The position numbers were made by a program, and so were the translations under genes. From the NCBI GenBank assembly GCA_049599475.1, contig JBMYOQ010000005.1, forward strand, positions 64,001-128,000: DNA of 64,000 nt. Reading direction: 5' to 3'. Source of the DNA: Opitutales bacterium. GTDB taxonomy: Bacteria > Verrucomicrobiota > Verrucomicrobiia > Opitutales > JABSRG01. The notes below the pieces were generated by a model. That model was not told where the DNA came from and made no database searches. It saw only the letters and a program-made list of their open reading frames with translations. Shown here piece after piece: positions 6,287 to 17,977 of this stretch; the stretch's first letter is position 1, and every line of letters begins with the position of its first letter.

Positions 6287-8314
6287 TTAAGCGGGAAAGG
6301 TGTAATTATGCCCCGAGTGCGCTGAGATTTTATCGAGATAGACAAGATCGCTGTGGTAGGCTGCTCGGCGCGCTATCTCCACTTTAAATTCTTCGGTAAT
6401 TTGCTCTAGGTTTGTGTCAGGATTTAGCAAGTCGGCCCAGAAGCCGGCTTTACGTAGGACTCGATTCCAGGAAGCGCGATCTGCCTTGATTCTACCGAAT
6501 TTGTCAAGGTATCGGATTTTCCCAACGTGTGAGTAATGCTGGAAGATCTCGGGGGGTACTTCTGTGATGGGGTCGTCTTCGTTGACGAATCTAAAGATCT
6601 GTCCCGACATTTCTTCCATCAGGAATGTGGCGAAGTCTTTGTCCCCGGGACGGGGCGATCCGTAAGTATACAGGCCGGATACTGGGATCTTCTGAGCGCA
6701 TAAATCTGCTGCGCAGAGGGTTGCCAGGCCGGCTCCTAGACTGTGGCCAGTGAGCCAAATTTCTCTTTCTGGATTTTCCTCAAGGGCTTCTTTTACTTGT
6801 GCGACCACGGTTTCTTTGACGGCGGAGTATGCACTGAGGAAGCCCTTGTGCACGGAGACTGTGGGGCCTGGGGTGTCGCCCAGAATATTCCAGCTGTCTA
6901 AGGGGATATTTAGATCGGTAATGATGTCTTGGAGTTCCTCTTTTTGTGTGCCTCGGAAGCAGATAGTTATGGAGTCATGGGTGTTTATGATGAATCCCTG
7001 GGTTCCGCGTGAAGCATTGTCTGCCCCTTCGCTGCCGAGCAGTATTGGCTTTTTAGATACGCCCATTTTGGAGACTTCTGGTTCGATCTCGGGGAATGGC
7101 AGGTATGCAATTTTGGAACAGCGCGCGGTCCAATATGCGATGTTTATGTCGAATGTGTCTTCGTCGGAAGCCATTGCTTCTGCGAAGGTTTTCGGGGTAT
7201 TGGTGTGGGCGGGCTGGGGTCCTTGCTGGTTGGCTGTTTTTGTCGGATTTTCAGAACTGTCCGCTTCTTTCTTTTCTGTTACGCCGGATACGGTAGCGCG
7301 GATTTTTGAGATTTTGTTCAGGATGTCATACCAGAAGGGTGCTCCGAGCGAGGCTGCGATGATGGTCGCGCTTAAGCCGATGATTTTTAAGAACCAATAG
7401 TGGGCGACCTGTCCGAAATCATCCTTTATGCAGCCGAAATCCATTTTCTTGAATTCGTAGTCGTCCCAGCCTAGGGGCACACCGGTGTTTTCAAGTTCGA
7501 GAACCGTATCTTCTACATTGTTGAAGGCTTCTTTGAAATTATTCGCCTGCTCTGAGCTGTCGTCTCCTTCCGTGCCGATTTCTTTATATGCCGCTTCTAC
7601 ACTGGCCTTTAAGATTTCGTCATTGGTCGAGAGGGCATTTATTATCCTTATCGTGTCAGCATTTATTAATACAGTCACGGCGATGGAGCTGATGATGACG
7701 TAGCGTTGGACGAGTCGCTTAAAGATACCCCGACTGCGGTCCATGCTCTCGTCGTACCAATTTCCAAGGGATTGAATAAGGGCGTCGCGCTCGCTGAGCT
7801 GTGGATTCTGGCGCTTGATGACTGCCGCGTGCTCGATTTGAGATTCGATCGCGTGGGCCAGCTGCACGCGTTGATCTTTCTCATCTTTATCCTTTAGCGA
7901 CTCGCTGTTTGCCCACCGTTTTACAGCGTGATTAAATCCTCCCAAACTATAGCATGGCTCCTTGCTGATTAGCTGCATTAGGACCGTGGCAAAAGTCTTG
8001 GCGTTTAAGCTGGAGGGAGCATGATTCTCGGAGTTGCTTTTTTTCTGTGCGCTCTCCTCTTGTGTGCCTGAGCCTTGTGGGTCTGTTGCATTCTTACACT
8101 GGCGGGCTGGATCGATGAGTGCCAGAATTTTGGGCTGATTGAAAAATTGCTTTGTTAATGTGCTATTCTTAAAGAATAAGCGGTCTACTGTTTGCCTGAG
8201 GACCTTTGCTTTGAGGTGGAAGCGAGCGATCAGGATGTCGCTGATGGATGTCACCAGAGTGCTGAGTACTAGGTAGACGAAGAAGAGGCCGATAAATATT
8301 TCGAGAGCTTTCAT
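6287..8314 (-). CDS. Membrane-domain / class 3 lipase fusion protein
   Basis: C-terminal ICFRGT, VHKGF, TGHSLGAG, YTYGSPR and VNEDDPITEVP (Lipase_3). N-terminal multi-TM domain with NADT, PLGW and LGAPFWYDIL. Confidence 0.85.
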   Translation of the reverse strand: MKALEIFIGLFFVYLVLSTLVTSISDILIARFHLKAKVLRQTVDRLFFKNSTLTKQFFNQPKILALIDPARQCKNATDPQGSGTQEESAQKKSNSENHAPSSLNAKTFATVLMQLISKEPCYSLGGFNHAVKRWANSESLKDKDEKDQRVQLAHAIESQIEHAAVIKRQNPQLSERDALIQSLGNWYDESMDRSRGIFKRLVQRYVIISSIAVTVLINADTIRIINALSTNDEILKASVEAAYKEIGTEGDDSSEQANNFKEAFNNVEDTVLELENTGVPLGWDDYEFKKMDFGCIKDDFGQVAHYWFLKIIGLSATIIAASLGAPFWYDILNKISKIRATVSGVTEKKEADSSENPTKTANQQGPQPAHTNTPKTFAEAMASDEDTFDINIAYWTARCSKIAYLPFPEIEPEVSKMGVSKKPILLGSEGADNASRGTQGFIINTHDSITICFRGTQKEELQDIITDLNIPLDSWNILGDTPGPTVSVHKGFLSAYSAVKETVVAQVKEALEENPEREIWLTGHSLGAGLATLCAADLCAQKIPVSGLYTYGSPRPGDKDFATFLMEEMSGQIFRFVNEDDPITEVPPEIFQHYSHVGKIRYLDKFGRIKADRASWNRVLRKAGFWADLLNPDTNLEQITEEFKVEIARRAAYHSDLVYLDKISAHSGHNYTFPA

Positions 8315-8560: not shown

Positions 8561-9295
8561 TTATTTGCCCCGCTGGTGGGATTGCACGAGGGCCTTGGCG
8601 ATTGCGTTTTCCACTCTGTTGCGAGAGTGGTTTATGTTTTGACGAATGCTCTTTCTGGCAGCTTGCGGGTCTTTGTTCTCAATGGCATCCAATATGGCCA
8701 AATGCTCTCCTGCTGTTTCTTGAATGCGGTGTGCATTTGTGATGACCGAAATTTTTACGAAGCGCAGACGCTCGTTCAAGCTGTGGAGAGAATCGGTGAT
8801 AGCCTGGTTGTTCAGGCTGTGAGCGAGACCCATGTGGAAATTGGTGTCACCCTCTACAAGGACTTCCGAATCGACCGTTTCGTCTGCCTGGATCTGCAGC
8901 CATTTTTCCCAGAAGCTACGTTGCTCCTGGACCCACTTTGCGTCGAGAGCAGAGTGGGTTGCCAAGGAATCTACGATAAACAGTTCCAGGGCCATGCGTA
9001 GATCGTAAAAGTCTTGGGTCTCTTTCGCGTCAGGTTGAATGACGAAGCATCCCTGGTTGGGCACCTTTTCCACGAGCTTTTGCTCTACAAGAGCTCGGAG
9101 TGCTTCTCGAATGGGGATGCGGCTGGCTGAAAACTCGGCGCAAAGAGATGCCTCAGAGAGGTGAAAGCCTGGGGGGTAATACCAGCTCAGGACTCGCTTG
9201 CGCAGAAGTTCCAAAATCTGCGCATTCGAACGACCGTGCCCGGTGGGGGGCGCGGTGTCTTTGGGGCGTGTCGCCTGAGTAGAGGGTTCCTGCAT
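8561..9295 (-). CDS. GntR family (FadR/FCD subfamily) transcriptional regulator
   Basis: wHTH LSEASLCAEFSASRIPIREAL; FCD motifs DTNFH and EHLAILDAI; divergent from the catabolic operon. Confidence 0.92.
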   Translation of the reverse strand: MQEPSTQATRPKDTAPPTGHGRSNAQILELLRKRVLSWYYPPGFHLSEASLCAEFSASRIPIREALRALVEQKLVEKVPNQGCFVIQPDAKETQDFYDLRMALELFIVDSLATHSALDAKWVQEQRSFWEKWLQIQADETVDSEVLVEGDTNFHMGLAHSLNNQAITDSLHSLNERLRFVKISVITNAHRIQETAGEHLAILDAIENKDPQAARKSIRQNINHSRNRVENAIAKALVQSHQRGK

Positions 9296-9355
9296 GGGTA
9301 CAACTGTCGGTTAAAAATGCTCATCTGCAACTGTGAATCGATTATTTTATAAAAA

Positions 9356-9376
9356 CGTATACGCTGTTGTATACAA
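9356..9376. promoter_or_regulatory. Putative GntR/FCD operators (CGTATACG and TTGTATACAA)
   Basis: Perfect palindrome TTGTATACAA at 9367-9376 and a second GTATAC core at 9356-9363, in the divergent intergenic region. Confidence 0.65.
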
Positions 9377-9392
9377 TGGTATGGGTGCTGCT
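9377..9392 (+). promoter_or_regulatory. Putative sigma54 (-24/-12) promoter
   Basis: TGGTATGGGTGCTGCT has exact GG-N10-GC spacing and ends about 40 nt before the receptor ATG. Confidence 0.5.
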
Positions 9393-9433
9393 AAAGCCGA
9401 ATTGGACAAACTCATTCTTTCCGATTTCTAATT

Positions 9434-11890
9434 ATGATTACTGACTCACATCGTCCTTGGTCGCCAAAGAGCGCCACATCCTCCCGCCTGTTGACGGGTG
9501 GATTCTTCGTATGTGTTCTCGCAGGTTCTACATTGCAGGCACAGGAAGCGGAGGAAGATATCCTGGAGCTCGACAGCTATGTATTCGAGACCAACGAAAT
9601 TGACGACACAGGGATTCTTCCGGATCGTCCGATTGAAGGTTTCGGCGCGGGCTACTCGTCGTTGACGGAGATTCCGCGTTCGATCACGACTCTGGAGTCG
9701 GACCTCATCGACAATTTTGCGATTGAGAATGTAAACGACTTCGTGCGTGTCGCAGCGGGAACATACACGGGCAACTACTTTGGTGTTCCTGGAGCCCTCG
9801 ATGTGCGCGGTGACCGCGCTGACAATCTTTTCCGCGGGTTCCGTAGGGTAGAAAACCGAGGTAACTATCCGACTCCGCTTGGTGCGACAGAATTTGTCGA
9901 AATCATTAAAGGTCCCATGCCTGTTTCTTTTGGGCCAGGCAAGGTAGGAGGAGCGCTTAATTTCTATCCTAAAACAGCTAAAAGCGATACTGCGCAGATG
10001 CTAGATGAGGCAACGGGTAAAGTCACGGCAACCATTGGAAGTTACGATAAGTATATCGGCTCAATCGAGCATGGAGCCCCGTTAGAGGTTGGCGGTAAAA
10101 AGGGTGGTTACTATGCATACCTACGTGCCGAAGATACAGGAAGTTTCTATGATAATGTCTTCAGCGAAGGACTGCTCGGACAACTTGCTTTCAACTTCGA
10201 TCTCAGCGAAGATCTTCGTATCGAATTTGGCACGATGGCCCACTACAGCAATTTGGCTCAAAACTTGGGCTGGAACCGCGTAACGCAGGACCTGATCGAT
10301 AACGGAACTTATATCACTGGATTGGATACGGATGTCCAAGATACAAACGGAAATGGCTTCCTGGACCGTGACGAACTAGATCCTATCAATGACGTAGGTG
10401 CGGGGCTCGACCAGTTTGCATTTTTAGGAAATATGACAGGTATCACGACGCCTGCGGGCAGCCCTGGATTCTTCTTAGACAGCGGGCTCGGTACGACCAC
10501 GCTGGATCATAGCCAAGTCCAAGCGGACCCTGATGACTTCTCTGAGACAGATGCGATCGTCCTCTACTTTGACCTCATCAAGCGCATCGATTTCGATACT
10601 GTATTCACAAATCAAAGCTTCTTTGATGTCTACGATCACCACAAGTATTCAACTTATGGTTTCACTGCGAAATATGACACCTACGTGTTTGAAAATCGCT
10701 CTACATTTGAGAAGCGTTGGCAGCTAGAAAATGCGACTCTTACTTCTGAGCTTGGTGGTGGAATCCGCTACTCGGATGGTGAAGAGCGCGAATCACGGGG
10801 ACGTGGCTATCAAGTGCAAGATCGTCGCGACATTTCTTTGGATTACATCCCAGCTAATACACGTTTCGAGCAGGCAGAGGCCAATGGCGATGCAACGGAT
10901 ATTCCATACAATCACGTCCAAGAAGGGGATTACCTCAATCTTGGCTTGTTTGGAAGCTTGACTGCGGCATTTGACAATGGTCTTACCGCGCAAGCCGGTA
11001 TTCGCGAAGATTATTTCGAAGTCGAAACTGAGGGTTACAGCTTTGGCCCAGGATCCGGTGCCACCAATGAAGATGAGGACGAAGCCTTCTCCTTCAATCT
11101 AAGCCTGACTTACGACACTGGCACTGGCCTGTTCCCTTACGTCACGTATGCGGAGTCCAGCTATCTGGAGTTGGGGCAGGGTAGCATTCTTGACCAGGCG
11201 CTCATCGGAAATGGTTCTTGGCTCCAGGATTCCGAAGTATTCGAAATTGGTGTGAAGGGGTCGTTCTTCGATAAAACACTCTTCGCGACGATTGCTTACT
11301 ACGACCAAGAGCGCTCCTTCAACGATTCCAACGCGAATGCATCTGTTTCCTACGGTTCTAAAGGGGTTGAGGCAGAGCTGAGATGGGTGGTTAATGAGAA
11401 CCTCTCTTTCATTGGTGCAGCCACCTTTTCTGAAGCAGAATTGGATGCCTTCCCATTTTTCCTAGGTATCCCGCCGGAAGTGCTTGGATATTCATTGGAT
11501 GATATTTCCGAAATACCTTATGGTGGACGCTTCATCTCGGACGGCAATGCGATCGATCTCGGTATCTCAACACCCGCAGATTGGCCAGCACCTACCGAGA
11601 CACACTCGCTCACCGCGATCTACTCCATGGACAATGGGCTCGGCTTCTCTTTCGGGGGAACTTACATCGGCTCGACTTTCTCAGGATTCTTCGAAGAGGT
11701 AAGCTTGCCGTCTTACATCGAATTTAATGGTTCGATCTCATATAAATATAAGAATTGGAGCTTCAATGCCTCAGTCCTCAATATCTTCGAGGAAGAAGGC
11801 TATACCCCACAGTTCCTCTTCCAGGAAGTGTTTATTGGACCAAACATAAACGAGCGTCAGTACCAACTGACGGTTGCTTACGAATGGTAA
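9434..11890 (+). CDS. TonB-dependent outer-membrane receptor
   Basis: Signal peptide; plug motifs EIPRSIT, LDVRG and VEIIKGP; beta-barrel with C-terminal YQLTVAYEW; 818 aa. Confidence 0.92.
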   Translation: MITDSHRPWSPKSATSSRLLTGGFFVCVLAGSTLQAQEAEEDILELDSYVFETNEIDDTGILPDRPIEGFGAGYSSLTEIPRSITTLESDLIDNFAIENVNDFVRVAAGTYTGNYFGVPGALDVRGDRADNLFRGFRRVENRGNYPTPLGATEFVEIIKGPMPVSFGPGKVGGALNFYPKTAKSDTAQMLDEATGKVTATIGSYDKYIGSIEHGAPLEVGGKKGGYYAYLRAEDTGSFYDNVFSEGLLGQLAFNFDLSEDLRIEFGTMAHYSNLAQNLGWNRVTQDLIDNGTYITGLDTDVQDTNGNGFLDRDELDPINDVGAGLDQFAFLGNMTGITTPAGSPGFFLDSGLGTTTLDHSQVQADPDDFSETDAIVLYFDLIKRIDFDTVFTNQSFFDVYDHHKYSTYGFTAKYDTYVFENRSTFEKRWQLENATLTSELGGGIRYSDGEERESRGRGYQVQDRRDISLDYIPANTRFEQAEANGDATDIPYNHVQEGDYLNLGLFGSLTAAFDNGLTAQAGIREDYFEVETEGYSFGPGSGATNEDEDEAFSFNLSLTYDTGTGLFPYVTYAESSYLELGQGSILDQALIGNGSWLQDSEVFEIGVKGSFFDKTLFATIAYYDQERSFNDSNANASVSYGSKGVEAELRWVVNENLSFIGAATFSEAELDAFPFFLGIPPEVLGYSLDDISEIPYGGRFISDGNAIDLGISTPADWPAPTETHSLTAIYSMDNGLGFSFGGTYIGSTFSGFFEEVSLPSYIEFNGSISYKYKNWSFNASVLNIFEEEGYTPQFLFQEVFIGPNINERQYQLTVAYEW

Positions 11891-11900
11891 TCTCAGGTCG

Positions 11901-11928
11901 GCGGGCGAGGCAGAATAGTCTCGCCCGT
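11901..11928 (+). other. GC-rich hairpin after the receptor gene (stabiliser or partial terminator)
   Basis: gcgggcgaggc-agaata-gtctcgcccgt, with no strong U-tract. Confidence 0.55.
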
Positions 11929-11974
11929 TGTATTTCAAGTAGTTGTTTTGTTTGTAGTGTAAATATTGGTTAGA

Positions 11975-12035
11975 TTAGGACAAACCGCGCATTCTCCGAA
12001 TGGTGAGATCTTTGGAGAATGCCGGGTTGTTCTAA
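11975..12035 (+). repeat. Long imperfect inverted repeat (~25 bp stem, 10 nt loop)
   Basis: ttaggacaaaccgcgcattctccgaa / tttggagaatgccgggttgttctaa: 1 mismatch, 1 bulge and 2 G-U pairs. Confidence 0.75.
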
Positions 12036-12064
12036 CGGCCTCTCAGAGTTCTCTTACCCATACC

Positions 12065-12634
12065 GTGAACGAATCGAGGAAAACAGAAATAGCGCAGAAT
12101 GTTGTAGCCGCTTTCAAGGGGTACGAAGCCGCATTGGTTTCCAACGACATTGAAGCCTTACAAAGTTACTTTCACCAATCGCCTGATGCTATTCGCTTCG
12201 GAGTGAATGAGCAATTATATGGCTACGAAGCGATCGCTCAGTTTCGCAAAGACCGTGTAATCAATTTTCGTAACCGGACGGAAAAACGCTTCGAAATCTC
12301 GGTTCTATCCGAGACTGTCGCGACCACGATGTACGAATACTCTATTGAGGTAGAGGGCGTGCCGCGAGATGGGAGACAGTCGCAGACATGGTTGTTCTCC
12401 GAGGGTAATTGGAAAATAATTACGGCACATGTTTCCCTACTTCCTGGTCGATCGGAAGTAGCTGACTGGAAACGCTTTGCACAGGAAAATGCAGCCTGCC
12501 TCGATTTTACTATCGATCCAGCTCATTTGGCAGGCGTTGTGCAACACCTAGAGACCATGGATAAACTTGTGGAGCCTCTGATGGATTTTGAATTGCCGGA
12601 GGACGTGGAGCCCGCTCCTGTATTTCGCCCATGA
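12065..12634 (+). CDS. AtzH/HpxZ-like (DUF3225) fused to AtzG/HpxX-like (DUF4089) protein
   Basis: YEAALVSND, IRFGVNEQLYG, GRQSQTW and IITAHVS (AtzH-like), then GVVQHL...LPEDVEPAPVFRP (AtzG-like) in one frame. GTG at 12065 is preferred because the longer ORF start runs through the hairpin. Confidence 0.82.
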   Translation: MNESRKTEIAQNVVAAFKGYEAALVSNDIEALQSYFHQSPDAIRFGVNEQLYGYEAIAQFRKDRVINFRNRTEKRFEISVLSETVATTMYEYSIEVEGVPRDGRQSQTWLFSEGNWKIITAHVSLLPGRSEVADWKRFAQENAACLDFTIDPAHLAGVVQHLETMDKLVEPLMDFELPEDVEPAPVFRP

Positions 12635-14028
12635 GCACACCTTATTATCGCATGCAAGCTGCAGAAATTGCGGCAGGTGTGAAAACGAAACAATTTTCGG
12701 CGGTCGAAATTGTCCAAGCATGTATTGATAGAATAGATACTGTAGGGCAGAAGCTAAATGCATTTACACGGGTCACGCGTGAGCGCGCACTCGCAGAAGC
12801 GGCGGAACTGGATGCTGCGCTTGCTCGAGGCGAAGATGTTGGCCCCCTTGCAGGCGTTCCTTTTGCCGTGAAAAATCTCTTCGACTTAAAGGGCGAGGTG
12901 ACTGTTGCAGGGTCCAAAATTAACAGAGATAATGATCCGGCGGAATCCGATGCGACCGCGGTCCAGCGCCTTACTCAAGCTGGAGCCATTTGCGTGGGCG
13001 CACTCAATATGGGGGAATACGCCTATGATTTTGTCACTGAAAATGCCCACGATGGCGCGACGCTCAATCCTTGGGACTTGGGGCATTCGGCGGGCGGTTC
13101 CTCGGGTGGCTCAGGAGCAGCAACGGCGGGTGGGCTTGTGCCCATAACTCTTGGAACGGATACCAATGGATCTATCCGAGTGCCTTCTTCATTCTGCGGT
13201 ATTTGGGGAATACGCCCCACCTATGGGCGTCTCTCTCGCGGAGGTTCGTTTGCCTTTGTTGATAGTATTGATACGATTGGCCCGTTCGCGCGGAGTGTTG
13301 AGGATCTTGCTCAAGCCTACGATGCCATGTCAGGTCCCGACGCACGCGATGCCGCATGCTCGGAGTTGCCAGAAACCGCGTTTGCCCAAACCCTGACTTC
13401 GGCTGATACACCGTTTAGGATCGCCAAGCTTGGGGGCTATTTCGCGGAAGGCGGCGATCCCAAGGTGCATGCGGCCGTGGATACCGTCATGGCGGCTTTA
13501 GGAGTCAGTGAATCAGTCGAGATCCCTGAGCCAGCGCTCGCTAGAACCTCTGCATTTGTCATTACTTGCGCAGAAGCCGGAGCACGCCATCTAGACCGAG
13601 TGCGCAGCCGTGCTCATGATTTCGATCCGAATATTCGCGACCGCTTTATTGCCGGTACGATGGTTCCGCACGCTTGGGTGGATAAGGCCCAGCGCTTTCG
13701 CACCTGGTGGCATGGCGAGGTGATGAAGGTGTTTGAATCCGTAGATATATTGATTGCACCGGCGACACCGCTTACTGCTTCAAAGCTTGGCCAAAAGACT
13801 CTGAGCTTCAACGGGGAGCAGTTGCCCCTACGCCCCAATATCGGCCTATTTACGCAGCCCTTGTCGTTTGCGGGTCTTCCTATTTTAGCGGCTCCAGTGC
13901 ATCGCGACGAGCAGATGCCGTGTGCCGTCCAGCTGGTAGCGGCTCCGCATGCTGAAGAAAAATTATTTAAATTGGCTCGAAAGTTGGAGACGATGGGGGT
14001 GTGCACCTCCCCGGTGGCTTCATTTTAA
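12631..14028 (+). CDS. atzE: AtzE-family amidase (1-carboxybiuret hydrolase-like)
   Basis: GVPFAVKNLFD, GALNMGEYAYDF, GGSSGGS, LGTDTNGSIRVP and FTQPLSFAGLP; amidase signature; coupled to the AtzG-like gene. Confidence 0.85.
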   Translation: MSTPYYRMQAAEIAAGVKTKQFSAVEIVQACIDRIDTVGQKLNAFTRVTRERALAEAAELDAALARGEDVGPLAGVPFAVKNLFDLKGEVTVAGSKINRDNDPAESDATAVQRLTQAGAICVGALNMGEYAYDFVTENAHDGATLNPWDLGHSAGGSSGGSGAATAGGLVPITLGTDTNGSIRVPSSFCGIWGIRPTYGRLSRGGSFAFVDSIDTIGPFARSVEDLAQAYDAMSGPDARDAACSELPETAFAQTLTSADTPFRIAKLGGYFAEGGDPKVHAAVDTVMAALGVSESVEIPEPALARTSAFVITCAEAGARHLDRVRSRAHDFDPNIRDRFIAGTMVPHAWVDKAQRFRTWWHGEVMKVFESVDILIAPATPLTASKLGQKTLSFNGEQLPLRPNIGLFTQPLSFAGLPILAAPVHRDEQMPCAVQLVAAPHAEEKLFKLARKLETMGVCTSPVASF

Positions 14029-14050
14029 GTGTATCCTAAATTAAATTACA

Positions 14051-14731
14051 ATGTCTCCTGCGCCTGTTAATGCCCAGCCTTTTGAGTTCCATCTGAAGAT
14101 GGATGAGTGTGCATTCCTCATCATTGATATGCAGCGGGACTTTGTTGAGCCTGGAGGTTTTGGAGAATCTTTGGGAAATGATGTATCCTTGCTCCGTTCG
14201 ACAATATTGCCTACGGCTCGGTTGCTGGCTGCATGGCGCGAAATGGGGGGTAAAGTGATACACACGCGTGAAGGGCATTTGCCGGATTTGTCGGATCTTC
14301 CGGAATCTAAGCGCACGCGAGGCAATCCGGAAATTGCGATAGGGGATACCGGGCCGATGGGCCGCATTCTAATTCGCGGCGAAGCGGGCCAAGGCATCAT
14401 TCCTGAGTTAGCCCCCGCCGAGGGTGAGTGCGTGATCGATAAGCCGGGGAAGGGCGCATTCTATAATACGTCTCTCGGAGATTATTTGAAGGCGGAAGGG
14501 ATCACTCAATTGATTGTTGCAGGAGTGACCACTGAGGTTTGCGTGCACACCACCGTGCGAGAGGCCAATGATCGCGGATATGACTGCCTCGTATTATCGG
14601 ACTGCACAGGGTCTTATTTCCCGGAATTTCATGAAATGGCCTTAAAAATGGTCGTAGCTCAGAGCGGCATATTTGGCTGGGTGTCCGAGAGTGCATCTAT
14701 CTTAAACGCACTAGATAAATTGAAGGAATAA
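14051..14731 (+). CDS. trtA: Isochorismatase-like cysteine hydrolase, triuret hydrolase (TrtA)-like
   Basis: D-K-C triad (IDMQRDF, DKPGKGAF, GVTTEVCV). GGFGESLGND, TEVC, GSYF and GIFGW match TrtA as recalled rather than BiuH (GGY..MGYD, TDVC, GAT, GVFG). Confidence 0.72.
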   Translation: MSPAPVNAQPFEFHLKMDECAFLIIDMQRDFVEPGGFGESLGNDVSLLRSTILPTARLLAAWREMGGKVIHTREGHLPDLSDLPESKRTRGNPEIAIGDTGPMGRILIRGEAGQGIIPELAPAEGECVIDKPGKGAFYNTSLGDYLKAEGITQLIVAGVTTEVCVHTTVREANDRGYDCLVLSDCTGSYFPEFHEMALKMVVAQSGIFGWVSESASILNALDKLKE

Positions 14732-14737
14732 AACGCG

Positions 14738-16312
14738 ATGACTGATTCCACGAATACTTTTAAGCCCAAGCTCTGGGTTCCCGGAGATTGGAATGCATTT
14801 TTTGGATACGGGACAAATATTTTGGTAAATGTCCTCACGCTCACAGGCTTATTGAGATTCGTATTGGGCTTTCCTGACGAGCTTGTTTTCGGTCGAGTAT
14901 TACCAGCAGTCGGGTTGATGCTTTTCCTGTCCACTTTTTATTATTCCTGGATGGCGTATCGTCTGGCGAAGGAAACGGGACGCACCGATGTCTGTGCACT
15001 CCCATCCGGGCCGGGAGTGGGGCACATGTTTATCTGTGTGTTTGTGGTCATGATGCCGATAAAAATGGAGACGGGCGATCCTGTTAAAGCTTGGGAAGCC
15101 GGCCTCACCTGGGTGTTTATTCAGAGTTTTGTCCTCGTGATCGGCGCATTCTTGGGGAAGTGGATTCGTAAGATTACCCCGCGTGCTGCGCTTTTGGGTA
15201 CTCTCGCTGGGGTCGCGATTACTTTTATCTCAATGCGTCCACTGATGCAGATGTTCCTCACTCCAGCGATTGGCGTGCTGTGCTTTGTCATCATTATGGC
15301 AGGCTGGTTCGGAGGTGTGAAATTCTTCAAGGGAATGCCCGCAGGTTTAGTTGCCTTGTTGGGAGGCACTGCCATTGCTTGGGGATCTCAATTATTCGGA
15401 ATGAATCTGGGTGGCTTGTCGCTTGAGGGGGTGACTGACTCTTTGAAATATTTTGGATTTAGCATTCCGATTCCAGCCCTCGATCATACGTTTTCGGGCT
15501 TCGAGTTTTTAGGTATCCTGCTCGTGACTGCGATTCCCTTCGGCCTGTATGATTTGATCGAAGCGATCGATAATGTGGAGAGCTCCGCCGCAGCGGGAGA
15601 CCCATATCCTACCAAAAAAGTGCTCTTGGCCGACGGTGTTGTCAGTATGATCGGTTGCTTGATGGGGAATCCATTTACCTTAGCCGTTTATATTGGGCAT
15701 CCCGGCTGGAAGGCTATGGGTGGCCGTATCGGCTACACTTTGGCAACAGGTGTTATGGTGATTCTGTTGTGCTGGTTTGGTACAGTCTCTGTGATATTGG
15801 CCGTCGTGCCGGTTGTCGCAATATTACCAATACTTTTATATATCGGACTCTTGATTGGCTCTCAGGCATTTCAAGAGACTCCCGCGCGTCACGCACCCGC
15901 AGTGATCATGGCGATGGTGCCGCACATGGCACACTGGGCTGGAGGTATGATCGAGGGTGCGCTCAATGCAAATGGCATTTTCGAACGCACACCAGAGCTC
16001 TACGAGAAGCTCGCTGGGGAAGGTGTATTGCTTCAAGGCCTACACAAAGTCGGAGATGGTGCAGCGCTCTCTGGGATTATTCTGGCGACGATGACTGTGT
16101 TTATCATCGAACGAAAATTACAGTATGCCGCGATTGCTGCCGCGATTGGCGCCGGCCTGACTTATTTGGGCTTAATGCATGGTCAAAATGTGGGCTGGGC
16201 GATGAATCCGAGTATAGCGCTGGGATACTTGATGACGGCTGGGTTTCTTGCCTTGTGCTCACGCCAGAAACTCGATCCCGTTCCTGAAGACCCACATCAC
16301 CATGCGTCTTAG
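14738..16312 (+). CDS. NCS2/AzgA-like (xanthine/uracil permease-related) transporter
   Basis: Many TM segments; GDWNAFFG, DVCALPSGP, DNVESSAAAGD and VYIGHPGWKAMGGRIGY. Confidence 0.8.
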   Translation: MTDSTNTFKPKLWVPGDWNAFFGYGTNILVNVLTLTGLLRFVLGFPDELVFGRVLPAVGLMLFLSTFYYSWMAYRLAKETGRTDVCALPSGPGVGHMFICVFVVMMPIKMETGDPVKAWEAGLTWVFIQSFVLVIGAFLGKWIRKITPRAALLGTLAGVAITFISMRPLMQMFLTPAIGVLCFVIIMAGWFGGVKFFKGMPAGLVALLGGTAIAWGSQLFGMNLGGLSLEGVTDSLKYFGFSIPIPALDHTFSGFEFLGILLVTAIPFGLYDLIEAIDNVESSAAAGDPYPTKKVLLADGVVSMIGCLMGNPFTLAVYIGHPGWKAMGGRIGYTLATGVMVILLCWFGTVSVILAVVPVVAILPILLYIGLLIGSQAFQETPARHAPAVIMAMVPHMAHWAGGMIEGALNANGIFERTPELYEKLAGEGVLLQGLHKVGDGAALSGIILATMTVFIIERKLQYAAIAAAIGAGLTYLGLMHGQNVGWAMNPSIALGYLMTAGFLALCSRQKLDPVPEDPHHHAS

Positions 16313-17237
16313 GCCTTTTTATAGCCTGGTTTTTGCTGCCGTACTGGCGGGGCCGTTGGTGGCACAGCCGGTTTGGCTGGATATGGACCAGCAGGCATTG
16401 GATGATGCGTATAATCAGAGTGTATGGGCCGGGAACCTAGAGCAGGTCATTGCTCGCTTCGATTCGAACAGTGATCGCGCCCGAGCAGCCCTCGGAGCGC
16501 CCAAGCGATTCACGTATGGGCAGGAGCCGGATGAAGGTATTGATGTTTATAGGACGTCTGCCGATAACGCACCTATTCATATTTTCATACATGGAGGAGC
16601 CTGGTTTTTGGGGCGCGCACATGGAAACGCGCATGCGGCTGAGGCCTTCGTGGATGCGGGAGTGCATTTTGTAGTTCCTGATTTTTCATCGGTGAAAGAT
16701 CTTGGAGGCAACCTCGGCGGGATGGTTGCGCAGCTGCGAGCGGCTGTCGCGTGGGTCTATAAGAATGCGGCGACAGAGTTTGGTGGTGATCCTAACCGAA
16801 TATTTCTCTCCGGTTTTTCATCAGGAGGCCATCTTGCGTCAGTCCTTGCTACGACGGATTGGCCAGCGTTCGAAAAAGGCCTGCCATCTCAAATGTTTCA
16901 AGGCGCGGTCCTCTGTAGTGGAATGTATGATCTGTATCCCGTCAGCCTGTCGGCCCGCAGAGAGTATGTGAATTTCACAGATCAGATTATCGAAGATTAT
17001 AGCGCATTGAGACAGCTTCATTACCTAAACTGTCCAATCGTGCTGGCTTACGGTGGATTGGAGTCGCCCGAGTTTAAGCGGCAATCCGAGGTGTTTTATG
17101 AGGCACTCACAAAGGCTGAAGTTCCGGTCGAATTGATCGTCGCGGAGCAATACAATCATTTCGAAGTGATAGAGACCCTGGGGAACCCGTTCGGGCATTT
17201 AGGCAAGGCAGCTCTAGCGCAGATTTTCGGGAAATAG
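16302..17237 (+). CDS. Alpha/beta hydrolase, arylformamidase-like, with signal peptide
   Basis: HGGAW oxyanion motif, GFSSGG nucleophile, ESPEF and NHFE; MRLRPFYSLVFAAVLAGPLVA leader starting at ATG 16302. Confidence 0.82.
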   Translation: MRLRPFYSLVFAAVLAGPLVAQPVWLDMDQQALDDAYNQSVWAGNLEQVIARFDSNSDRARAALGAPKRFTYGQEPDEGIDVYRTSADNAPIHIFIHGGAWFLGRAHGNAHAAEAFVDAGVHFVVPDFSSVKDLGGNLGGMVAQLRAAVAWVYKNAATEFGGDPNRIFLSGFSSGGHLASVLATTDWPAFEKGLPSQMFQGAVLCSGMYDLYPVSLSARREYVNFTDQIIEDYSALRQLHYLNCPIVLAYGGLESPEFKRQSEVFYEALTKAEVPVELIVAEQYNHFEVIETLGNPFGHLGKAALAQIFGK

Positions 17238-17290: not shown

Positions 17291-17977
17291 TTATTCGACC
17301 TCTTGATACAGGGATTGGCTTATGATCGATCCGTGCTCACTTTCGGAAATAGCCCTTGTGATTGAAGGCTGTGCGTCTAGAGCCTGGCCGAGCATCTTAA
17401 GTCCATCCGTGTTGAAAGAAATTAAGTGGCTGAATGATCCATCTCCGACTTCTACTCGAAACATGTTAATGTAGATGTCTTTGCTGACAGTTTCTTGAGT
17501 CTGGGTCTGCCATCTTTCAAGAGTCTCGAGGAGCTTGGATTCATTTTTTGCGGCTACCCGTAGATTCAGGAGTGTGCCAGGAGTGTGGGTTCCGTCGAAA
17601 CGAACTGCTTTTAGATAAGTGTGTGAACCGGACGATTGAAGAGTCCGTGAAAGTGTGTTGCTTGCTGCTGTCCAGTCGGGGTGTTTCGAGAAAAGATCTC
17701 GGTTTGTGAGCAGGGATTCGAACGATAGGGCCGGGATAAGTGTGAAGCCGCCCTGTGTGTCGAGTGACTGATATGCTCGAAGGAAAAGCGGAATATCATG
17801 TTGATCGCTCATCCGCGCATTGATCGCCTGCATCTCCTGTTGAAAGCGTGGCAGGTCGGAAAACGCGACAGGTTCTATACAAATTGCCGGCAGGATCTCT
17901 GGCGCCTCAGCTTTTATTGCTATAGTTTGTGAGAGTAAAACCGCGAGGCTTAGGCAAAGGATATAAGGTGTGTGCAT
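17291..17977 (-). CDS. Hypothetical exported protein
   Basis: 228 aa ORF with a hydrophobic signal-like N-terminus. Confidence 0.6.
   Translation of the reverse strand: MHTPYILCLSLAVLLSQTIAIKAEAPEILPAICIEPVAFSDLPRFQQEMQAINARMSDQHDIPLFLRAYQSLDTQGGFTLIPALSFESLLTNRDLFSKHPDWTAASNTLSRTLQSSGSHTYLKAVRFDGTHTPGTLLNLRVAAKNESKLLETLERWQTQTQETVSKDIYINMFRVEVGDGSFSHLISFNTDGLKMLGQALDAQPSITRAISESEHGSIISQSLYQEVE

Follow-up and report, generated by a model that had tools for sequence, protein, structure and literature searches.

Triuret is an oxidation product of uric acid and a fertiliser impurity. Researchers have described its catabolism in Herbaspirillum sp. BH-1 and Rhizobium leguminosarum bv. viciae 3841 as a TrtA-(TrtB)-BiuH-AtzF pathway that places triuret upstream of biuret, and the same study noted that carboxybiuret can go either to a decarboxylase or to a deaminase, naming AtzEG as an existing carboxybiuret amidase (PMC7948467). 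A second described system is the cyanuric acid operon atzDGEHF of Pseudomonas sp. ADP plasmid pADP-1; the role of the widespread atzG-atzE-atzH clusters without atzD was left open there, with the suggestion that they predate cyanuric acid catabolism (Esquirol et al., PMC6219798). Here we analysed a 64,000-nucleotide stretch of an Opitutales bacterium genome (contig JBMYOQ010000005.1, positions 64,001 to 128,000; hereafter the window), in which a cassette at 8561-17237 consists of a divergent gntR gene followed by six co-oriented genes for a TonB-dependent receptor, an AtzH-AtzG fusion, an AtzE-family amidase, a TrtA-type hydrolase, a permease and an alpha/beta hydrolase. Judging from sequence and gene context, this cassette is probably a nitrogen-scavenging operon, which would convert triuret through carboxybiuret, dicarboxyurea and allophanate to four molecules of ammonia, bypassing biuret.

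The cassette shares TrtA, AtzF as the last step and a GntR regulator with the Herbaspirillum and Rhizobium pathway, and its predicted substrate and nitrogen yield are the same, but it has neither BiuH nor the cupin, carboxybiuret would be deaminated by AtzE instead of being decarboxylated, and a TonB receptor with a UraA-fold permease stands in place of the BMP-type ATP-binding cassette (ABC) importer of Rhizobium 3841. With atzDGEHF it has in common the AtzG, AtzE and AtzH homologues, an AtzF encoded in the genome and three predicted downstream reactions, whereas TrtA stands where AtzD would be, AtzH forms one protein with AtzG that is encoded upstream of atzE, GntR replaces LysR, and its AtzE is 49.5% identical to the pADP-1 enzyme and lies in another clade. 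The third related system is Klebsiella hpxWXYZ, which we take, from its annotation, to be an oxalurate/oxamate cluster; its HpxX, HpxY and HpxZ are homologous to the G, E and H parts of the cassette and carry the same tested active-site residues, but the cassette has no HpxW/GGT, and its partners are allophanate hydrolase and TrtA. A literature search returned no description of TrtA feeding AtzGEH, of an AtzH-AtzG fusion or of a triuret TonB receptor, a weak negative in that incomplete coverage could hide a trtA-atzE context. The enzymes are of known kinds, and the wiring, the fused enzyme and the outer-membrane importer appear to be undescribed; the order of these familiar enzymes is new, as is the fusion, both transporters are uncharacterised, and the promoter is conserved.

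Under the proposed route, the sigma-54 promoter would drive the operon and GntR would repress it until an inducer is present, as the conserved sites suggest, and the TonB receptor and the UraA-fold permease would, by their context, import the substrate. TrtA would release the first ammonia from triuret to give 1-carboxybiuret; AtzE, folded and held by the AtzG domain, would release the second to give 1,3-dicarboxyurea, as expected of its family; and the AtzH domain, tethered to AtzE via the fusion, would decarboxylate dicarboxyurea to allophanate and CO2. Allophanate hydrolase, encoded on another contig here (C11) and next to the cassette in some relatives, would then convert allophanate to 2 NH3 and 2 CO2, for an overall yield of 4 NH3 and 3 CO2 per triuret. 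Each of these reactions has been described for a homologue (PMC7948467, PMC6219798), and it is their combination into a TrtA-AtzGEH route that we infer; what the analysis itself establishes is the gene content, the diagnostic residues, the co-occurrence of the genes and the conservation of the promoter. The half-life of carboxybiuret, which turns into biuret, is about 20 min (PMC7948467). Biuret would be a dead end in a cell that lacks BiuH, a possible reason for the tight operon and for the fusion.

The protein encoded at 14051-14731 (+) has as its best PDB match 6XIX (E 2e-81), which is the TrtA structure (PMC7948467). According to the same paper, six positions differ between TrtA and BiuH, being F35, N41, A134, E160, Y187 and I205 in TrtA and Y, Y, S, D, T and V in BiuH; the window hydrolase is TrtA-type at all six and BiuH-type at none, and this six-residue test correctly sorts the BiuH and TrtA paralogues of Rhizobium 3841. 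The equivalents of the triad D24/K129/C162 are present as D26, K131 and C164, and the substrate residues F29, E72, K132 and Q202 are kept as F31, E74, K134 and Q204. Against NF050097, the BiuH model, the hydrolase scores 275.7 and stays below the cut-off of 370, whereas a neighbour-type BiuH scores 410.6. It falls inside the TrtA clade of a quick tree of 61 rows, the Rhizobium 3841 pair among them, in which the TrtA/BiuH split had a Shimodaira-Hasegawa-like approximate likelihood ratio support of 100; this tree and the AtzE tree were quick searches without bootstrap, and the assayed Herbaspirillum TrtA was compared with the window hydrolase by phmmer only. A TrtA enzyme would be expected to hydrolyse triuret about 10^4-fold better than biuret, and TrtA was extremely specific for triuret in vitro (PMC7948467). 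The residues and the orthology to an assayed enzyme argue strongly that the gene product is TrtA, which would convert triuret to 1-carboxybiuret and ammonia, and its position with TrtA and apart from BiuH bears out the sequence-only reading of the window, which had called it TrtA-like.

That reading had also listed atzD, biuH, trtB, allophanate hydrolase and hpxW as missing from the cluster, and family scans of the cluster genes indeed found no atzD, biuH, atzF or hpxW within the cluster. For the genome as a whole (G000; 96.6% complete, 146 contigs), the list holds for biuH, since only the window gene among four isochorismatase-family matches is TrtA/BiuH-like, whereas atzF, urea carboxylase and an AtzD-family gene (C39:17758-18864; NF052395 score 429.5, cut-off 360) were found on other contigs. 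TrtB, for which there was no reference sequence for comparison, was sought by proxy, with no Cupin_7 match and no second AtzH-like gene in the genome. The allophanate hydrolase and urea carboxylase genes lie together on contig C11, where a single run (C11:8797-21989) contains a NikR-like regulator, a sigma-54-type element, an ABC importer, a creatininase-like gene, a type III glutamine synthetase, two DUF1989 genes, urea carboxylase and allophanate hydrolase.

Close kin were unusable for comparison, because none of 60 sampled relatives, six of them from the same family, had a TrtA/BiuH-level match (best E 2e-18). We searched 351 genomes of a family of the same order (f22) with AtzE and TrtA. 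The AtzE query matched 21 of these genomes and the TrtA query 33 at E <= 1e-40, four of which were weak (42-46% identity); once these were excluded, 29 genomes that carry a TrtA-signature gene remained. Among the 29, AtzE without a BiuH-level second match was present in 18 (15 genera) and a BiuH-signature gene without AtzE in 11 (4 genera), no genome had both modules or neither, and the two types occur together within genera g67 and g76. AtzF was matched in 17 of the 18 TrtA+AtzE genomes and in all 11 TrtA+BiuH genomes, against a background of 102/351, and atzF stands directly after the permease in five TrtA+AtzE genomes and is convergent in one; an AtzD-family gene was present in one of the 18. 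Ten genomes with fusion loci (G061-G070), which overlap the f22 set so that the counts are not additive, gave TrtA in seven, AtzF in nine, and a second BiuH-level match or AtzD in none. Across the phylum, TrtA was matched at E <= 1e-40 in 9 of 401 genomes. Most of the TrtAs that are linked to BiuH lie nested within the AtzE-linked group and have the same permease as neighbour, so that one substrate is likely for both types. An independent, unfused occurrence of TrtA with AtzGEH, which also supports the triuret route, is found in the cultured strain Terrarubrum flagellatum 7MK25, whose plasmid carries trtA-permease-atzF-atzG-atzE-atzH behind an ABC importer and GntR (L253:9001-15140). The core of the sequence-only reading, that TrtA feeds AtzGEH without BiuH, is thus supported by the diagnostic residues, by the absence of BiuH from this genome and by the either/or pattern of AtzE and BiuH in 29 genomes.

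Several findings weigh against this interpretation or narrow it. The AtzD-family gene in the same genome could also supply carboxybiuret. Ten of the 11 BiuH-linked TrtAs form one clade (support 88) nested among the AtzE-linked ones, which means that the either/or pattern amounts to about two independent switches and that Fisher p-values overstate it. In 26 alphaproteobacterial AtzE genomes, chosen for TrtA/BiuH-like or permease genes near atzE, 17 had two TrtA/BiuH-level enzymes and 9 had one, and among 80 metagenome TrtA loci AtzE was present in 1, BiuH in 26 and neither in 53 (neither in 14 of the 33 loci of >=8 kb). Because few metagenome TrtA loci have AtzE and many alphaproteobacteria carry both, the AtzE route is a minority variant. 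The window AtzE lies outside the pADP-1 AtzE clade, it does not differ from Klebsiella HpxY at the six active-site positions tested, so that these do not fix the substrate, and the receptor is tied to triuret by position only. Finally, fusion cassettes L007, L011, L019 and L037 occur in genomes without TrtA and AtzD, three of the four being metagenome-assembled genomes of unstated completeness and L037 an isolate, Croceicoccus ponticola; for these the triuret route offers no account.

These last cassettes raise the question of whether the core module of receptor, AtzHG, AtzE, permease and AtzF serves another or broader natural ureide, with TrtA as an add-on, in which case a TrtA-less AtzE may deaminate triuret, biuret or another acylurea directly. 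Searches of all four genomes gave no TrtA or AtzD match, L007, L011 and L037 run from atzE to the permease without a gap for trtA, and the TrtA-less cassettes form separate AtzE subclades; in addition, atzGEH clusters are rarely linked to atzD or atzF (Esquirol et al., PMC6219798). However, 18 of the 21 f22 AtzE genomes do have TrtA, and the remaining three comprise an unfused cluster linked to AtzD, a genome whose atzE lies at the end of a contig and a genome without any TrtA, AtzD or AtzF match; the extreme specificity of TrtA for triuret in vitro (PMC7948467) also speaks against a broader substrate. We therefore regard this explanation as unlikely.

The AtzE gene (12631-14028, +) encodes a putative 1-carboxybiuret amidohydrolase, which exceeds the cut-offs of TIGR02715 (643.6 against 425.75) and NF006631 (669.2 against 461) and has 6C62 (AtzE) as its best PDB match; it is 45.1% identical to Klebsiella HpxY. 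Its closest named relatives are from Verrucomicrobiota, several labelled Opitutaceae. The Lys-cisSer-Ser triad and an AtzG partner are both present, with residue numbers that we take to be K74/S150/S174 and Y125/N172/Q402 in AtzE. The use of active-site residues to discriminate AtzE from HpxY was dropped, as the tested positions do not separate them. In the AtzE tree, the HpxY proteins of Klebsiella and Serratia are separate from the fusion clade, and the window AtzE belongs to neither reference clade.

The sequence-only reading had offered, as an alternative, that AtzG, AtzE and AtzH act as HpxX, HpxY and HpxZ and convert oxalurate to oxamate in purine oxidation. The shared active-site positions are what would be expected in that case, the AtzH domain has HpxZ as its only NCBIfam match (106, below the cut-off of 135), the genome has other purine-catabolic genes, and TrtA elsewhere joins another oxalurate module, AllFGH-ArcC. 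Nevertheless, a GGT/HpxW-type gene occurs in no mapped cassette locus and in 1 of 80 AtzE loci, a cluster-linked GGT query matched 12 of 23 genomes with a best identity of 37%, and the single GGT of this genome is 27% identical. The enriched partner is AtzF and not HpxW, and the HpxY proteins branch apart from the fusion clade as mentioned above. The oxalurate explanation is therefore disfavoured, and we consider it quite improbable.

The fusion gene (12065-12634, +; most likely start the GTG at 12065) encodes 189 amino acids with an N-terminal NTF2-fold AtzH-like (DUF3225) domain (PF11533) and a C-terminal AtzE-binding AtzG-like domain (PF13318). The fusion is present in 18 of 20 AtzH-bearing mapped loci, the exceptions being one irregular cluster and one unfused AtzD-linked cluster, and both Pfam domains were found in 10 of 61 homologues, one of them from Synoicihabitans lomoniglobus. 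Close homologues of the receptor or the fusion occur in named Opitutales isolates. In a structural model of the fusion with AtzE the complex scored 0.86 against 0.01 for the best control, with contact agreement of at least 94% and a partner predicted local distance difference test (pLDDT) value of at least 84; the mark used was reached by 116 of 157 solved pairs and 2 of 215 mismatched pairs. This pass probably reflects likeness to the solved AtzEG complex 6C62. All confident contacts lie in the AtzG domain, and for this reason the fusion would act as a tether; none of them joins the AtzH domain to AtzE, and docking or channelling is not claimed.

The best solved relative of the AtzH domain is AtzH 6BJT. 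Seven of nine residues of the Arg-rich pocket are identical (Tyr22, Arg46, Arg63, Arg66, Arg73, Gln106 and Gln108), Phe94 is replaced by Tyr and Arg96 by Ile, and both catalytic residues, Tyr22 and Arg46, are kept (reference positions from PMC6219798). It is conceivable that decarboxylation comes first, with the AtzH domain acting like TrtB on carboxybiuret and AtzE deaminating the resulting biuret to allophanate. A supplementary alignment legend places trtB, atzH and hpxZ in one 126-position alignment, suggesting kinship (PMC12625717), and in metagenome locus L308 biuH-trtA-atzF leads on to an AtzH-like gene without an intervening atzE. However, possession of AtzGEH does not enable Pseudomonas sp. 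ADP to degrade biuret (PMC6219798), and the window domain keeps the AtzH GRQSQ motif and is 38% identical to the ADP AtzH against 32% to the L308 protein, a weak preference. We would give this order of steps little chance. The idea that AtzGEH here mainly completes cyanuric acid breakdown begun by the C39 AtzD-family enzyme is extremely unlikely: that enzyme does pass NF052395 and keeps four of the five AtzD specificity positions of PMC3758960, but it has Gln at the Thr321 position and its own amidase and NCS2 permease as neighbours, 17 of 18 TrtA+AtzE relatives lack an AtzD-family gene, and such a role can add to the triuret route and cannot explain the cassette.

The regulatory region lies between gntR and the receptor gene. 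The GntR/FCD-family regulator (8561-9295, -; Pfam GntR and FCD) has orthologues divergent from the receptor in related cassettes, and it is inferred to be the cassette repressor. A palindrome, TTGTATACAA, at 9367-9376 is conserved in the intergenic alignment, has a second GTATAC half-repeat just upstream and occurs in six exact copies in the 4.68 Mb genome; it is a candidate GntR operator. A sigma-54-type -24/-12 element (GG-N10-GC; TGGTAT-N5-CTGCT, 9377-9392, +) starts at once after the palindrome. This element was found in eight of nine intergenic regions, the exception being Croceicoccus, where the palindrome is kept, and in 17 of 18 receptor-bearing mapped loci, one locus being common to the nine-region set. 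A motif search found RpoN and four enhancer-binding proteins in the genome, and sigma-54 generally implies nitrogen control. The placing of this conserved GntR-type box immediately in front of a sigma-54-type promoter is a new feature. Scans for sigma-70 promoters and terminators stayed at chance level (10 against 8.6 and 6 against 9.4), and an Rfam scan of the window found tRNAs only, with no riboswitch at the cassette.

The TonB-dependent receptor (9434-11890, +), recognised by its Pfam plug domain, has orthologues of 40-46% identity at the same position in related cassettes, and it is labelled a siderophore/iron receptor in databases. Its closest paralogue in the genome (34.5% identical) is on contig C39 and heads a run with a sigma-54 element, a 2-oxoglutarate (2OG-Fe) dioxygenase, a xanthine riboswitch and an NMT1-type ABC system, a context that points to uptake of nitrogen heterocycles or ureides, not iron, for this receptor family. 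From its place in the cassette, the window receptor is a putative high-affinity importer of triuret. The paralogue's run on C39 is faced by the genes of the AtzD-family enzyme, its amidase and its NCS2 permease, and the whole makes up a second nitrogen-heterocycle region of the genome (C39:17758-31173).

The inner-membrane permease (14738-16312, +) belongs to an unnamed family and is labelled 'regulator' in databases. It had been called NCS2-like, and this holds for the predicted fold but not for the sequence, as no Pfam, NCBIfam or PDB sequence match was found, PF00860 and TIGR00801 included, and a profile search of PDB sequences gave nothing either. The model reached a pLDDT of 89 with 74 sequences, a single-sequence fold reached only 44.8, and Foldseek matched the model to SVCT1 (E 6e-8), UraA (1e-6) and UapA (7e-6) at 12-15% identity; AZG1 also matched, and SLC26 proteins did so about as well, which gives a UraA/NAT-SLC23/SLC26 fold. 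Thus, the permease may work like an NCS2/NAT transporter without being a member by sequence. It travels with TrtA in both the AtzE-linked and the BiuH-linked pathway types. At C10:45830-49956, a distant permease paralogue (35%) is divergent from a distant receptor paralogue (24%), and no catabolic genes adjoin the two.

The last gene (16302-17237, +; most likely start ATG 16302) encodes an accessory alpha/beta hydrolase (Pfam BD-FAE/Abhydrolase_3) with an N-terminus judged by eye to be signal-peptide-like. The earlier description of it as formamidase-like did not survive, since no formamidase family matched and the protein is an alpha/beta hydrolase with HGG and GxSxG motifs. Its inclusion as a core part of the cassette was rejected because it is nearly absent from related loci: besides the window it occurs in one of 34 mapped loci, as a 53% orthologue in G601, and another set of 80 loci gave one weak unrelated match. 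Otherwise the gene content and order stood as proposed, all seven genes being found in place and orientation. From the second co-oriented gene onward the junctions are tight, with overlaps or gaps of at most 22 bases, and the atzE start overlaps the fusion stop by 4 nt. The GC content is 0.51 for both cluster and window, giving no sign of recent transfer. The flanks hold a gene for a 675-amino-acid protein with an unassigned N-terminal membrane region and a class 3 lipase domain (6287-8314, -) and one for a 228-amino-acid signal-peptide-like protein with no family match and no paralogue (17291-17977, -).

Other TrtA contexts were encountered in the course of the survey. A ChrR-like cupin (L216:10117-10539, L223:6680-7084, L254:12946-13299) is present in all 11 f22 BiuH loci and in no examined fusion-type AtzE cassette, and it also follows trtA in Rhizobium 3841. 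It may be a carboxybiuret decarboxylase; it was first taken as TrtB, which could not be confirmed and is not claimed. In the metagenome locus mentioned above (L308:7-8188), which has biuH, trtA and atzF but lacks atzE, the AtzH-like gene encodes a protein whose motif is altered to GFQTQ, a candidate TrtB-type AtzH homologue. On E. coli ColV/IncF plasmids (L251:896-8106, L252:8001-15211), a TrtA-signature hydrolase heads a run of DUF2877, fdrA, DUF1116 (AllFGH-type), carbamate kinase and cytosine permease, and the stretch contains neither biuH nor atzE; Escherichia accounts for 77 of 264 plasmid records matching the TrtA query, many from poultry. This AllFGH-type operon may give TrtA a third exit, one that yields carbamoyl phosphate, in hosts rich in uric acid.

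We speculate, as a rather doubtful extension, that triuret is a natural and long-standing nitrogen source with a dedicated sigma-54-controlled TonB receptor, that triuret, rather than cyanuric acid or oxalurate, first fed many of the orphan atzGEH clusters and was the source of the module that atrazine degradation later took over, and that in the versions without TrtA and AtzD, AtzE of this clade alone deaminates triuret at both ends. Closer to the data, the cassette would give a concrete natural feed for a subset of the atzD-less atzGEH clusters, which is testable in cultured strains. It predicts a second triuret route, completing the pairing of two entries (AtzD and TrtA) with two exits (BiuH and AtzGEH), and it brings forward two transporter families, both uncharacterised, that are candidates for ureide import. 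Such organisms would escape surveys in which biuH serves as the marker of triuret use.

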